From assembly GCA_947627805.1 (NCBI GenBank), contig CANQXB010000003.1, forward strand, positions 1 to 41,398: a stretch of 41,398 nt of DNA. The letters are read 5' to 3'. Each line of letters begins with the position of its first letter. Positions within the stretch are counted from its first letter, which is position 1. The stretch comes from an uncultured Bacilli bacterium (GTDB taxonomy: Bacteria > Bacillota_I > Bacilli_A > RF39 > UBA660). The notes under the pieces were generated by a model that did no database searches, had not been told where the DNA came from, and saw nothing but the letters and a program-made list of their open reading frames with translations. Of this stretch, positions 9,954 through 14,197 are shown in pieces. The position numbers were made by a program, and so were the translations under genes.

Positions 9954-12221
9954 ATGAAAGTAAAAGAAAAAAATAAATATCTTCCTTATCTTATCAATTC
10001 TTTAATTGTAATTGTAATTTTTTGTTTAATTTTATTATTAAGTAAAACATCTCCTTTTGGTGATGCTTTAGCTTTAGGTAAATCCGATGCTATTTATCAA
10101 TATAAACCAATGCTTTATAATTTTATTATGAAACTTAAAACGGGTACTTTATATCAGTTTAGTTTTAATAATGGGTTAGGTAATTCTTTCTTTTTTAATT
10201 TTGCTTATTATTTATCTAGTCCCCTAAATTTGGTAGCTATCTTTTTTAATAATCCTGATTTTATGTTTTTAAGTGTCATTTTAATTAAAATGAGCGTTAC
10301 CAGTTTATTTTGTACTTTTTATGCTAAAAGTAAAAATTGTTCTAATTTTACATCTTTGATAGTGACTATTTCTTATGCTTTTTGTAGTTGGTTAGTTGTT
10401 TATTATTACAATATTATGTGGTTAGATACCTTCATGATGTTTCCTTTATTTCAATATGGTTTAGAGAAGTTAATTGCTCAAAATAAACCCACCATTTTTA
10501 TTTTATCTTTAGCTTATATTTATGCCACTAATTTCTTATTAGCTTTTGCTGTTTTAATATATGGTCTAGTCTATTTTATAATTAAAAATTTCTTTTATGA
10601 CAAAAAAGAAATAAAGAAGAAATTAAAAACTTTTTTAATATTTATAGGTTCCTTTATTTTTAGTATTTTGTTAATTGCCTTTTATTTTTGTATTTTAATT
10701 GATGTTAAAAAACAAATGGGATTAGGTTTTTCTGATGCTAATGGTAATATGTATCTTGTTAGTACCATCGATTTTATTAAAAGTTTATTTTATGGTAATA
10801 ATATTTTAATGTTGGATTTTGCCGGGAATACTTTTCCTAATATTGCTGTTAATACTTTTATCTTTTTAAATGTTATTTATTATTTTTTAAATAGTAAAAT
10901 TTCCTCGCGTGATAAAGCTTTTACTTTTATAGGTATTTGTCTTGTTATCGTTTGTATTTTTTCCGTAAAAGTAGATTATATTATGAATTTTTTCCATAAT
11001 GTCGTGGGTTTAACATATCGTTATTCTTATATTTTCTCTTTTTTAGCAATTATGCTTTTTATAGAGAATGCTCAAAATTATGATAAAAAAGATTTTAAAA
11101 AAATGCTTCCTATTATTATAGCTTTATTATTAATCGTTTTATTATTAGGAACTAAGATGAATAAATTAATAGTAATTTTTAATGGGGTATCTTTATTATT
11201 TTGTTTATTTATCTTATTTTGTCAAAATGAAAAAGTTCTTAAATTATCTTTATCTTTTTTCGTAATAATTCAATCTTTATTAGTGGGTTATTTAACTATT
11301 CCTAATAAAGAAGAGAATAGTTATGAGAAATTGCCCAATAATTTTGAATCTAAACCTTTAAAATATCGTTTAACTACCATTGGGGAAAATGATTATTTAA
11401 ATAAAAATTTATATACTAATCAAGATGTTACTTATTCTTTTACTTCCATGACTTATAATGATACTTTAACACTAGTTAATAAATTAGGTTATTATGCGGG
11501 AAAAAATGGAATGTCTGGTAATATTCATAATGAATTATTTAATTTACTATTTAATGTTCAAAGTTCTAATAATTATTATTTAGAAAAAATATATACTGTT
11601 AATAAAAATATATTAGATATTAAATTTAGTGATAATGTAAAAAATAATACCGAAGATTTAATAAAGAAAATGACTGATGTTGAAAAAATATATGATAAAG
11701 TTATTTTAAAACCTACGGAAGAAGATGATAATTTCTATTATTTTCAAGTTGATGAAGAATATGCTTTATTAGAAGAGAAAGATAATGTAGAAGTTATTTC
11801 TAAAGGAAAAATAAAATTAAATAAGAATGCTTCTCAAGATAATTTAGTTATCTATAAATTAAATCAAGATAAGCTTAAAAAAATATATGAAATTCTTTCA
11901 ACTAAGCAAATTGCCTATACTTATTATAGGGATGATTTAATTGAAGGAAAAATTCAAGTTTCCGAAGACCAACTAATCTTTACTTCTATACCATATGATA
12001 CTAATTGGCATATAACTATTGATGGAAAAGAAGTACAACCGGTTAAATTATTAAATGCTTTAATTGGCATAGAAGTTGAACCGGGTAATCATACTTTAAA
12101 AATGGAATATCGTTTTGATTTAACAAAACCTCTTATTATTTCAATAGTATCTTTAACAACTTTGCTCGGAATTAATTTCTATACTATTAATAAAAAGAAA
12201 AAGAAAAAAGCTAAAAACTGA
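9954..12221 (+). CDS. YfhO-family polytopic membrane protein (GT-C-like, cell-wall polymer glycosylation)
   Basis: SD..YQY, GLG..F....AYYLSSPLN, NIMWLD motifs, many TM helices, C-terminal TSIPYD.NW...IDGK...GNH motif. Stop codon TGA is supplied by the IS end. Confidence 0.8.
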   Translation: MKVKEKNKYLPYLINSLIVIVIFCLILLLSKTSPFGDALALGKSDAIYQYKPMLYNFIMKLKTGTLYQFSFNNGLGNSFFFNFAYYLSSPLNLVAIFFNNPDFMFLSVILIKMSVTSLFCTFYAKSKNCSNFTSLIVTISYAFCSWLVVYYYNIMWLDTFMMFPLFQYGLEKLIAQNKPTIFILSLAYIYATNFLLAFAVLIYGLVYFIIKNFFYDKKEIKKKLKTFLIFIGSFIFSILLIAFYFCILIDVKKQMGLGFSDANGNMYLVSTIDFIKSLFYGNNILMLDFAGNTFPNIAVNTFIFLNVIYYFLNSKISSRDKAFTFIGICLVIVCIFSVKVDYIMNFFHNVVGLTYRYSYIFSFLAIMLFIENAQNYDKKDFKKMLPIIIALLLIVLLLGTKMNKLIVIFNGVSLLFCLFILFCQNEKVLKLSLSFFVIIQSLLVGYLTIPNKEENSYEKLPNNFESKPLKYRLTTIGENDYLNKNLYTNQDVTYSFTSMTYNDTLTLVNKLGYYAGKNGMSGNIHNELFNLLFNVQSSNNYYLEKIYTVNKNILDIKFSDNVKNNTEDLIKKMTDVEKIYDKVILKPTEEDDNFYYFQVDEEYALLEEKDNVEVISKGKIKLNKNASQDNLVIYKLNQDKLKKIYEILSTKQIAYTYYRDDLIEGKIQVSEDQLIFTSIPYDTNWHITIDGKEVQPVKLLNALIGIEVEPGNHTLKMEYRFDLTKPLIISIVSLTTLLGINFYTINKKKKKKAKN
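12208..12218 (+). repeat. Target-site duplication, left copy (11 bp)
   Basis: AAGCTAAAAAC, identical to 13912-13922 and abutting the left IR. Confidence 0.9.
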
Positions 12222-12311
12222 TTGAATTAAAAGGAAAGTTCCCAAAATAGTAAAAAAAATAAAATAAATGATTAAAGTCCCGAAAATAAATAAAAAAATT
12301 AATAAAAAAAC

Positions 12312-12340
12312 TTGAAAAAAACAAATAATTTTGTTAATCT
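12312..12340 (+). promoter_or_regulatory. Inward-facing sigmaA-like promoter in the IS left end
   Basis: TTGAAA-17bp-TAATCT with extended TG; same TGtTAATCT -10 as the hup promoter in this window. Confidence 0.6.
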
Positions 12341-12344
12341 ATAC

Positions 12345-12492
12345 ATGTCCAAAAGAAAATGGACATACTAAAAAGTGTACGTAGTAAAGTCTTTTTACGA
12401 CTAACTTCCCGTACAATAAAAGAGAAAAGATTAATAATTGGCTTATTTGTCAACGAAGAAGCGGAAGAAATAATCTTCTGCTTTTTCGTTGA
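12345..12492 (+). ncRNA. Candidate IS-encoded three-hairpin RNA, convergent with the transposase
   Basis: Stems 12345-51/12360-66, 12376-81/12410-15 and 19-bp 12450-68/12474-92. Two G-U pairs in the last stem work only on the + strand. Confidence 0.55.
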
Positions 12493-12500
12493 AATAATAA

Positions 12501-13697
12501 TTAAAGAATACTTTCAATATTTAACGATACATCATCCGGTTTAATATATCTATAATTAAGTTTTTTAATTAAATCAGGGTAGTATTTTAAAGTTTCTTCG
12601 TAAGGTGTCTTACCTTTTAAAATATCTCTAGGAATATTGTTAATTGTTTCTTCTAATTTTTGAATTTGTTTTTCAGTTACATTGTCTAAATCATAACCTT
12701 TGGGAAACACTCTTCTTATATATTCATGGTTTCTTTCAATATTACTTTTTTGCCAAGATGAGTATGGTTTGCAATAAAAGACATTGCAAGTTTTATTTCC
12801 TGTATTGTAATCTATTTCAATACATAAAGGGTCATAAAACTCTATTCCATTGTCAGTTAAGATGATTCTAAATATTTTAGAAAATAATTTAATCCCTAAT
12901 TTTTCTTTTAATTTATTTATTTCTTTATTTACACAAGCAATATTTTTCTTATCAAGTAATCTAATAAACATAAATTTAGTATTTTTAATAAGAATAGTTA
13001 ATAATACTTTATGACCTTTTTTCCCTTCAACTGTATCCATTTCGCAAATATTCATTTTAGGATGTTTAGAAATAAAATCTAAATAATCTTCATAAGTTCT
13101 TCCTTTAAGAAGAGATATTTTTCTTTTGTAATCATTATCATATTTTTTCTTTCTACTTTTGTATTTAACCTTTTTAGGTAAATCTATGTTAGATAAAGAC
13201 AAAACATTTAAATCGACATATTTGTAAAAAGTAGGTTTAGACATATATAAAATATCGGAATGATTAATATAGACTTGATTAATACTTTGTTTTTTGTTCT
13301 TTATTAAAGGAACAATAGATTTTTCAATTTCTTCAGCAACTTCAGGAGATATATCAACACCCTCACGAGAAGAAGATAAAACCTCTTCATAATGTTCTTG
13401 AGCCACTTTAGCATTGTAATAAACTTTAGCATTTAAACAATATTTTTTATTGGGACAAGGATTACATACATAAGGAGGTTTTTTAAGAGTTTTGCATTTG
13501 GAAATAGTATTTTGGATAATATTTTGGTCAAAATGATTTTTATCATATTTAACATATCTATTTCTTTTAATTTCTTTAGAGATAGTAGTACGGTCAGAAG
13601 AAACAGCTTTACCAATATAAGAAAAAGATTTATTTAAACTAATTAAATATTCAATATTATTACGTTGTTCTTTGCATAAATGTGAATAATTTGTCAT
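12501..13697 (-). CDS. IS30-family DDE transposase
   Basis: N-terminal HTH (YSHL..EQR..IE...TTISKEIKRN), Cys motif PPYVCN.C, catalytic EMDTVEG / LTDNGIEF / IERNH..IRR. Start moved to ATG 13697 behind RBS AAAGGAG. Confidence 0.95.
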   Translation of the reverse strand: MTNYSHLCKEQRNNIEYLISLNKSFSYIGKAVSSDRTTISKEIKRNRYVKYDKNHFDQNIIQNTISKCKTLKKPPYVCNPCPNKKYCLNAKVYYNAKVAQEHYEEVLSSSREGVDISPEVAEEIEKSIVPLIKNKKQSINQVYINHSDILYMSKPTFYKYVDLNVLSLSNIDLPKKVKYKSRKKKYDNDYKRKISLLKGRTYEDYLDFISKHPKMNICEMDTVEGKKGHKVLLTILIKNTKFMFIRLLDKKNIACVNKEINKLKEKLGIKLFSKIFRIILTDNGIEFYDPLCIEIDYNTGNKTCNVFYCKPYSSWQKSNIERNHEYIRRVFPKGYDLDNVTEKQIQKLEETINNIPRDILKGKTPYEETLKYYPDLIKKLNYRYIKPDDVSLNIESIL

Positions 13698-13720
13698 CAA
13701 AATGACTCCTTTCTTTAATA

Positions 13721-13773
13721 ATGACAAATAAACCAATGAGGTATATAATATACTTATAAAGGAAAATAATCAA
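13721..13773. promoter_or_regulatory. Overlapping divergent promoters in the IS right end
   Basis: - strand TTGATT(13768-73)-17bp-TATTAT(13745-50) facing the transposase; + strand ATGACA(13721-26)-17bp-TATAAT(13744-49) facing outward. Confidence 0.6.
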
Positions 13774-13880
13774 TAATCCTCGCCGGATGGGCCTTACTTT
13801 CTTTTACGAAAAAGAAAGATAAGCAAAGAAACCGGGGAATGATTATTTAAGTGTTTTAATGACTTATTGCTCATCTTTAA
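13756..13880 (+). ncRNA. Candidate IS-encoded multi-stem, pseudoknotted RNA
   Basis: Stems 13764-72/13840-48, TCC..CCGG/CCGG.GGA, CTTTCTTTT/AAAAGAAAG, and a crossing pairing GATGGGC(13786-92)/GCTCATC(13869-75). Confidence 0.55.
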
Positions 13881-13911
13881 AAATTTGGGAACTTCTAATT
13901 TTATTTAATCA

Positions 13912-13922
13912 AAGCTAAAAAC
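13912..13922 (+). repeat. Target-site duplication, right copy (11 bp)
   Basis: AAGCTAAAAAC followed by TAG, the apparent original stop codon of the YfhO-family gene. Confidence 0.9.
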
Positions 13923-13925
13923 TAG

Positions 13926-13954
13926 TTGACTTTAAAACTATTTGTGATTAAAAT
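13926..13954 (+). promoter_or_regulatory. sigmaA promoter of the 71-aa ORF
   Basis: TTGACT-17bp-TAAAAT. Confidence 0.75.
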
Positions 13955-13981: not shown

Positions 13982-14197
13982 GTGATAACAAATGAAGAAG
14001 CTGTTGCCTTTTTAATGTTATTTGGTCGTAGTGAAGCTAAAGCTAGAAAAATACTTGCTAGTCCTTCAGGAGTTAATTATAAAAGTATAATAGCTGAATT
14101 TATAAATAATGTTAGAATAAAAAAGAGCGACCCAACTTTAGACGTTTTAGCTTATTTACAAAATAATCCTCAAGAAGTAAAAAGAAAACCATTTTAA
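13982..14197 (+). CDS. Small hypothetical protein (71 aa)
   Basis: GTG start, RBS AAGGAAG, own promoter, host-like codon usage; no recognised motif. Confidence 0.7.
   Translation: MITNEEAVAFLMLFGRSEAKARKILASPSGVNYKSIIAEFINNVRIKKSDPTLDVLAYLQNNPQEVKRKPF

Follow-up and report, generated by a model that had tools for sequence, protein, structure and literature searches.

A conserved, probably transcribed RNA facing the transposase mRNA trailer in a promoter-targeting subgroup of IS30-family insertion sequences

Why does an insertion sequence keep, at its non-coding end, an inward-facing promoter followed by a series of hairpins? We addressed this question in a 41,398-nucleotide stretch of DNA from an uncultured Bacilli bacterium (contig CANQXB010000003.1; hereafter the window), where an earlier note made from the letters alone had proposed a discrete RNA next to an IS transposase gene. 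The host assembly is 1.16 Mb long with 27% GC, and the nearest named relatives are for the most part uncultured Bacilli. Relatives of the element were collected by genome and metagenome scans, plus two plasmids; a search of viral contigs with a single query returned no relative.

The region belongs to an IS30-family insertion sequence delimited by terminal inverted repeats and a direct repeat:

12220 to 13910, no strand assigned: IS30-family insertion sequence, 1,691 bp
12207 to 12219, + strand: left copy of the 13-bp target duplication
13911 to 13923, + strand: right copy of the 13-bp target duplication
12501 to 13697, - strand: IS30 transposase gene, 398 aa from an ATG with a ribosome-binding site (NF033563, PF13936)

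The inverted repeats (12219-12254 and 13876-13911) span 36 nt, are imperfect and 75% complementary, and the 13-bp duplication is a direct repeat identical at 13/13 positions. The gene product scores 117.5 bits against the curated IS30 model NF033563 (cut-off 80), and its N-terminal HTH accounts for the PF13936 match. A four-cysteine motif is conserved and the D221-D282-E321 triad is intact, with D221, D282, E321 and R328 invariant in 87 sequences. The predicted structure (pLDDT 90) has an integrase-type fold for which the Foldseek matches listed include retroviral DDE integrases and IstA; searching the PDB by transposase sequence gave no match. Classical IS30 members make short target duplications of 2-3 bp, with longer ones in some mollicute members. 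Since comparison of target flanks across the examined elements gives duplications of 12-14 bp, the window element is a member of the IS30 family by its protein and of a distinct subgroup rather than of the classical short-duplication type.

The source genome (G000) holds a second member on contig C13, with 61% protein identity and a near-identical stretch of about 88 nt in the RNA region, and the scan of contigs C13 and C67 also returned a distant IS30-type gene (29%). An assembly artefact is not needed to account for the near-identical C13 segment, as the features described below recur in unrelated genomes, including a complete chromosome. Elsewhere, two members (L090 and L103, G608 contig C2) stand in tandem with a single 13-14 bp duplication between them, one copy having inserted directly against the left end of the other.

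The candidate RNA lies between the left end of the element and the end of the transposase gene, in a region with the following features:

12312 to 12340, + strand: predicted inward-facing small-RNA promoter, called on TAnnnT conservation and spacing
12346 to 12490, + strand: predicted small RNA, about 145 nt long, facing the 3' trailer of the transposase mRNA in antisense, called on comparative evidence
12345 to 12366, + strand: hairpin P1 at the 5' end of the RNA, variable in sequence and weak in many homologues
12370 to 12415, no strand assigned: A run and hairpin P2, which on the - strand form a stem followed by a U run
12399 to 12411, + strand: M3, an internal copy of the end motif and a likely transposase-binding site
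12450 to 12492, + strand: hairpin P4 with an internal U run, the predicted small-RNA terminator
12235 to 12244, 12274 to 12282, 13861 to 13873 and 13886 to 13894: further copies of the end motif

Most of the structure that the earlier note had described is present: TTGAAA (12312-12317) and TG-t-TAATCT (12332-12340) across a 17-nt spacer, a 7-bp hairpin (12345-12366) with the loop that it gave, a TGTACG/CGTACA stem (12376-12381/12410-12415), and a 19-bp stem (12450-12492) that includes two G-U pairs when read as + strand RNA. The inner pairing that it saw in the middle hairpin also exists, in a shifted register: the minimum-energy fold contains AGT/ACT plus AGTC/GACT, not TAGT/ACTA. Folding of the region beats 200/200 shuffles on both strands, with z scores of -9.2 (+) and -6.6 (-). 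The -10 of the small-RNA promoter in the window matches the consensus at only 3/6 positions and a consensus scan of the window listed neither this promoter nor any terminator, so that the promoter call rests on conservation. We placed the ends of the predicted RNA by this promoter and by the U run at 12482-12486, which puts it, in the window, wholly beyond the transposase stop codon with no overlap with the initiation region or the coding sequence. The Rfam search that the note had suggested assigned the region to no family (Rfam 15, best E 0.28, 8/8 matches below the gathering score). A 61-aa ORF on the + strand was considered as a small protein and rejected as unconserved, an ORF of at least 40 aa being found in only 5/24 close elements, with unrelated lengths. 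Many close members (L031-L033, L037-L045, L059-L061, L063, L087, L091 and L002) have an additional ORF of 53-82 aa located after the transposase stop codon and before P4, and by sequence these ORFs fall into two types or more; the window element is without it.

Is this arrangement conserved? In the close relatives (26 distinct elements, protein identity about 50-100%), the features follow one another as a -10, P1, a CA followed by an A run, P2, an A/T-rich linker, a motif of 14-16 nt and P4, and the same order is found at 31-45% protein identity. An inward -10 at near-fixed spacing and a covarying middle hairpin persist in homologues with a protein identity as low as about 30%, and many of them also keep the terminal hairpin. 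TAnnnT is invariant in 26/26 aligned close homologues, and a promoter of this form occurs in 55/58 scored elements. When distances of 30-62 nt were allowed, the -10 of the best promoter ended 34-36 nt before P2 in 43/58 elements; three more elements were left out for want of an anchor, and some of the 58 rows are mis-anchored, that of the window included, for which a separate tabulation gives a spacing of 34. The separately tabulated spacings and the A-run count (53/53) are fixed by the choice of anchor and carry no evidential weight. In the most distant set, a strict promoter-plus-linker pattern matches only 18/43 elements. In the close elements, the named pairs of P2 and the motif are 83.5% standard and 8/14 of them change on both sides, as do 5/6 of the outer pairs of P2; this covariation lies above 500/500 shuffles, a test inflated by kinship, and above slid controls (23-40% paired). 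Pairing of the A run with the U-rich loop of P2 into a pseudoknot was rejected, own pairs beating non-cognate ones in only 13/24, 6/12 and 2/15 cases.

The two strands are not equivalent. P4 is more stable on the + strand in 45/58 elements and on the - strand in 12/58; P2 shows the opposite tendency (- in 36/58, + in 19/58), and P1 is more stable on + in 31/58 and on - in 18/58. Within the outer P2 stem, 20 cells are wobbles on the - strand (A-C on the + strand) against five G-U cells on the + strand. Because the wobbles of the last hairpin favor the + strand and those of the middle stem the - strand, two convergent transcripts are likely, a + strand RNA of about 145 nt that would stop at P4 and a transposase mRNA that would stop at P2, the two overlapping by about 120 nt; P2 and the U run on the - strand are likely to be the terminator of the transposase mRNA. 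The earlier note had offered a + strand RNA and a transposase terminator as alternatives, and both are probably true, given the outer middle stem that wobbles on the - strand ahead of a U run. Its proposal of a discrete + strand RNA, for which we estimate about 140-145 nt, gains from the conserved -10 at near-fixed spacing, the greater stability of the last hairpin on the + strand and the covariation. One could still read P4 and P2, each of them terminator-like on one strand, as hairpins that insulate the element without any regulatory RNA, but this would leave the conserved -10, and the copy of the transposase leader described next, unaccounted for, and we hold it to be highly improbable. A natural deletion in one relative (L071) fuses the terminal end motif to M3, so that the small-RNA promoter is lost along with P1 and half of P2 whereas Y (defined below) is kept, which makes it a ready-made null allele.

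The earlier reader had missed a further feature of the RNA, which links it to the other end of the transposase mRNA:

13745 to 13773, - strand: predicted transposase promoter, TTGATT-17-TATTAT, its -10 conserved just before X
13722 to 13737, - strand: X, the first 16 nt or so of the transposase mRNA and the switch strand, just after the transposase -10
12437 to 12452, + strand: Y, a same-sense copy of the transposase leader that covaries with X

X falls downstream of the transposase -10 and ahead of the ribosome-binding site, so that it takes up roughly positions +1 to +16 of the mRNA, and X and Y are identical at 15/16 positions. Since Y copies X in the same sense, the trailer of the mRNA carries the complement of its own leader. 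We tabulated this copy in 59 closer elements, setting aside those with no match (four), with an indel in Y (two) or with no leader (one). A member on a Clostridium beijerinckii plasmid (L114) also has the leader copy. Among the 60 full-length elements of 82 distant loci, it scored above the best of 20 shuffles in 43, against 3/60 for the other strand, and the remaining 17/60 had no copy above shuffles; in 38/43 the leader complement starts 6-28 nt past the stop codon. The sequences of X and Y are unrelated between lineages, yet they change together. Differences between X and Y in 40 distant pairs comprise 12 that are wobble-compatible for pairing between X and the trailer, 2 of the reverse type and 6 transversions. 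In the 59 closer elements the figures are 40, 2 and 3, many of them inherited together and reducible to about five or six independent events within the core; all of these counts overstate independence, the elements being related. A joint A/G change in X and Y has occurred on at least four occasions across a quick tree, as taken from the drawing of the tree rather than from computed change counts.

Such behavior fits pairing rather than protein recognition, because the sequences are unrelated from element to element. Covariation driven by the protein was rejected, since no transposase column separates the A and G groups (21 sequences only). We also rejected Y as a self-hairpin: unguided RNAalifold on the close clade returns one small helix only, which is this hairpin, yet Y is non-palindromic in other clades.

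A different kind of copy came from the short matches that the earlier note had discounted as chance in AT-rich DNA. This judgment holds for the matches to the target region; that to the IS end is not chance, 12399-12411 (M3) being a copy of the end motif. M3 matches the ends of its own clade better than those of other clades, and prefers the ends of its own element to those of clade mates in 13/24, 6/8 and 4/15 cases. It follows the ends by clade and not by element, the behavior expected of a DNA-binding site. All of X, Y and M3 might be protein-binding sites, an operator and auxiliary sites for the transposase, with the inward promoter halting transposase transcription at P2 through RNA polymerase occupancy or collision and the RNA being incidental. 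M3 tracking the end motif by clade, the location of X where operators sit, a near-fixed promoter-to-U-run distance that fits a steric effect and the weakness of P1 in many homologues would all agree with this. We nonetheless consider it unlikely, given X and Y sequences that are unrelated across elements, differences between them that are biased to G-U-compatible types, the lack of any protein column that follows the A/G switch, and a covariation of X with codons that is described below.

Other parts of the right end of the element are more fluid. A long hairpin between the transposase promoter and the right end (13765-13847) is nearly identical in elements with divergent transposases (G000 contig C13; L012 and L068), and other members have unrelated hairpins in its place; one such type stands upstream of the gene in L005, L030, L031 and L089 and downstream of it in L003 and L020. 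These hairpins look like mobile miniature cargo. A near-consensus outward promoter (13721-13749, + strand, 11/12) shares sequence with both X and the transposase promoter and is oriented so that it would transcribe the cargo hairpin toward the host promoter; its -10 is poor in several homologues.

What could a leader copy in the trailer do? X has a second potential partner close to the start of translation:

13706 to 13713, - strand: transposase ribosome-binding site
13687 to 13699, - strand: Z, the start codon and first codons, local partner of X

In 80/96 elements, the pairing of X with the initiation region of the same element is stronger than its mean pairing with those of other elements (top decile in 43/96), and the other 16/96 show no preferential pairing with Z. 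This pairing is always weaker than that between X and the trailer. In 21 rows of the close clade, a C in the leader goes with a second codon GCA (four rows) and a U with ACA (12 rows).

We propose that the + strand RNA is an antisense RNA which covers the 3' trailer of the transposase mRNA and represses its translation, the trailer itself being an activator through its pairing with the leader; we would give this reading a probability of about 0.55. In a nascent or truncated mRNA, X would fold onto the start-codon region and enclose the ribosome-binding site, keeping translation off. Once transcription has read through P4 to the P2/U-run terminator, the trailer of the full-length mRNA would capture X over 12-16 bp and free the start, turning translation on. 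By pairing with about 120 nt of the trailer, the + strand RNA would restore the off fold, to which it may add RNase III cleavage or transcriptional interference, and binding of the transposase at M3 might provide feedback. This proposal starts from what is visible in the compared sequences, namely the element itself, the leader copy, the concerted change of X and Y, the complementarity of X to the start region and the conserved position of the promoter; from these we infer that both RNAs are made and what the sign of each step of the switch is. A pairing of leader and trailer over such a distance is plausible in Bacillota because transcription and translation are uncoupled in B. subtilis (PMC7821165). 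The near-fixed spacing from the -10 to P2 and the conserved CA-then-A-run motif do not follow from simple antisense action and count against the proposal.

Modeled folds of the transposase mRNA predict the off, on and off-again states. For the window mRNA, the unpaired probability of the start region is 0.42 at full length, against 0.03 when the trailer is left off and 0.02 when it is blocked, with X paired to the trailer at a probability of about 0.99; part of the start codon stays under a residual hairpin in this mRNA, and a 600-nt nascent form takes a different fold in which this probability is 0.15. The helix between X and the trailer is part of the minimum-energy fold of 12/16 distant mRNAs and missing from the other 4/16. 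Over 96 elements, the cost of opening a ribosome footprint falls from 9.1 to 7.6 kcal/mol with the element's own trailer, as compared with 8.8 with non-cognate ones. The own trailer lowers it by more than 1 kcal/mol in 53/96 elements and raises it in 18/96, and non-cognate trailers lower it in 17/96. The opening effect of the trailer in these models is thus modest and non-uniform, and equilibrium folds of 1.4-kb RNAs leave ribosomes and kinetics aside.

The same pairings could also work with the other sign, the helix of leader and trailer shutting down or destabilizing the finished mRNA, or shielding its 5' end, and the antisense RNA relieving or tuning this effect. Only 2-15 nt separate the end of the helix from the ribosome-binding site, and the helix, stacked on the complement of P4, could be a substrate for RNase III; the elements in which the trailer raises the opening cost would fit as well. 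Helices of this kind repress in icaR and protect in hbs (PMC7821165; PMC5737220), and a shut-off after transcription would be expected to yield a cis-preferential transposase. The mean predicted effect of the trailer is nevertheless one of opening, and the covariation of X with the start-codon region would be left unexplained, which makes this a possible but distinctly less probable reading.

The location of the RNA at the end of an insertion sequence raises a further question, whether it selects the target. The element of the window sits upstream of a host promoter:

13926 to 13954, + strand: host promoter of sigma-A type, TTGACT-17-TAAAAT, with the element inserted upstream

We chose 22 right flanks from the close clade, all with host flank, leaving out three that abut other elements or are rearranged. 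Oriented insertion upstream of a sigma-A promoter was noted for the window element and for L012, L031-L036, L041, L043, L063-L065, L068, L087, L089, L091 and L100-L103. A sigma-A-type promoter with its -35 starting 16-19 bp from the end of the element is found in 21/22 of them, and promoters are placed in this way at 298 of 20,000 random genome positions (1.5%). In more distant clades the -35 often lies at about 36-38 or 46-47 bp, a helical phasing. The right flanks of L020, L095, L097 and L005 contain target promoters of one clade with a long G run in the spacer. In the window, the targeted promoter precedes a 71-aa ORF (13982-14197, + strand) with no Pfam match, upstream of secE, and the left duplication overlaps the last codons of yfhO, the stop codon of which is now formed at the junction.

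The guide role that the earlier note had implied finds no support here. The longest match between RNA and target is 8.35 nt for own targets and 8.39 nt for those of others (11/20 elements), and a target-guide RNA was rejected. Identical RNA segments are found at unrelated duplications (L033-L036; L065 and L100-L102). Because identical RNAs sit at unrelated targets and 21/22 insertions lie just upstream of sigma-A promoters, the comparison of these sequences indicates that the small RNA does not guide targeting; the feature common to the targets is their position relative to a promoter.

The RNA could serve the transposase in another way, as a bound cofactor with a P1-P2 scaffold, in which Y or the trailer complement, or the copy of the end motif, pairs with promoter-proximal or end DNA of the element itself for autorepression, self-avoidance or synapsis. 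This would accommodate a geometry and a CA/A-run motif that are kept over deep divergence, a segment that varies freely and in every case has a matching DNA site within the element, and a four-cysteine module in the transposase with no assigned role. Pairing of Y with the template strand at X, however, gives C-A mismatches where pairing of X with the trailer gives wobbles, M3 matches its own element no better than clade mates (see above), the pseudoknot is without support, and the fold matches listed are to DDE integrases and IstA. We rate such a cofactor as quite improbable; were it real, this would be the first RNA-programmed DDE/IS30 transposase, with an RNA that recognizes, represses or synapses the element's own ends while the transposase targets host sigma-A promoters.

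Among RNAs that guide are IS110 bridge RNAs or seekRNAs and TnpB omega RNAs; bridge and omega RNAs are named in a recent preprint (bioRxiv 10.64898/2026.10.21.760802). The predicted RNA of the window element resembles them as a structured RNA encoded by an insertion sequence, at the non-coding end and with a variable segment. In contrast to them, it does not covary with targets, its variable segment matches the element's own leader, and its partner is an IS30 DDE transposase and not an IS110 recombinase.

Returning to antisense control with an activating trailer, the reading that we prefer, a comparable case within the family is RNA-C of IS30 (Arini 1997), which is described as antisense to the transposase gene, inhibiting its expression and acting only in cis (PMC11601373). 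Both would thus be IS30-family antisense RNAs that inhibit transposase expression away from the start codon, whereas the window RNA lies beyond the stop codon and faces a trailer complementary to the leader of the mRNA. With RNA-OUT, art200 and RNA-C as a group, it shares a promoter of its own (predicted here) opposite the transposase mRNA and differs in overlapping neither the initiation region nor the coding sequence. In ISPpu9, of the IS110 family, the ribosome-binding site is buried in a structured transposase leader and becomes accessible through an RNA complementary to that leader, which a second RNA, encoded downstream of the gene, counteracts (Asr9/Ssr9; PMC8450116). By our model the logic here would be alike, one RNA opening the transposase leader and a downstream RNA counteracting, but the activator of ISPpu9 is a separate upstream sRNA, as opposed to the mRNA's own 3' trailer with a cis antisense RNA as the counteracting partner, and the transposase chemistry is different, that of the window element being DDE.

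Pairing between the two ends of one mRNA is itself known in Bacillota. In S. aureus icaR, 5'-3' UTR pairing hits the ribosome-binding site and represses (PMC7821165), and in B. subtilis hbs a 14-bp pairing blocks RNase Y (PMC7821165; PMC5737220). These long-range helices are of similar length to that proposed here, while the trailer of the window mRNA would take the inhibitory strand and not the binding site, in a pairing kept with changing sequence across a large family. The 5'-3' UTR pairings reviewed in the cited text repress or stabilize rather than activate (PMC7821165). The type I toxin system aapA3/IsoA3 of H. pylori combines co-transcriptional hairpins that hide the Shine-Dalgarno sequence with an antisense RNA (PMC6733600). 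A start hidden during transcription together with an antisense RNA is thus a shared trait, whereas the product in the window is a transposase and no small hydrophobic toxin is encoded in the element. As to the targets, TnGBS/p-MULT 3 and ISKra4-group elements insert in an oriented manner 15-17 bp upstream of the -35 of sigma-A promoters, and a contact with RNA polymerase has been proposed (PMC3942029). The close clade resembles them in its oriented insertion upstream of promoters; there the transposases are Mutator-like, and here they are of IS30 type with 12-14-bp duplications.

The open literature listings and abstracts searched held no description of the RNA module, and the main text of the 2026 preprint does not mention IS30. 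Taken together, our comparisons point to a real and conserved RNA region, likely transcribed, in a promoter-targeting IS30 subgroup, which would represent a new form of antisense control of transposition. If the proposed switch is true, a widespread IS30 subgroup, present in cultured as well as uncultured Bacillota, makes translation of its transposase depend on a complete mRNA, the two ends of which meet across 1.2-1.4 kb, with an antisense RNA as the brake. This would be an activating 5'-3' mRNA switch, the bacterial examples in the papers cited here being ones that repress or stabilize. Since X, Y and Z diverge into sequences without resemblance, every element would own a private, orthogonal regulator, and the family would amount to a natural library from which to study and engineer mRNA switches that act over long distances, in hosts where transcription and translation are uncoupled. 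Mutator-like transposases have been described as inserting in an oriented manner upstream of sigma-A promoters; insertion of this kind is now seen in an unrelated DDE family, where it offers a testable case of convergent targeting directed by RNA polymerase.
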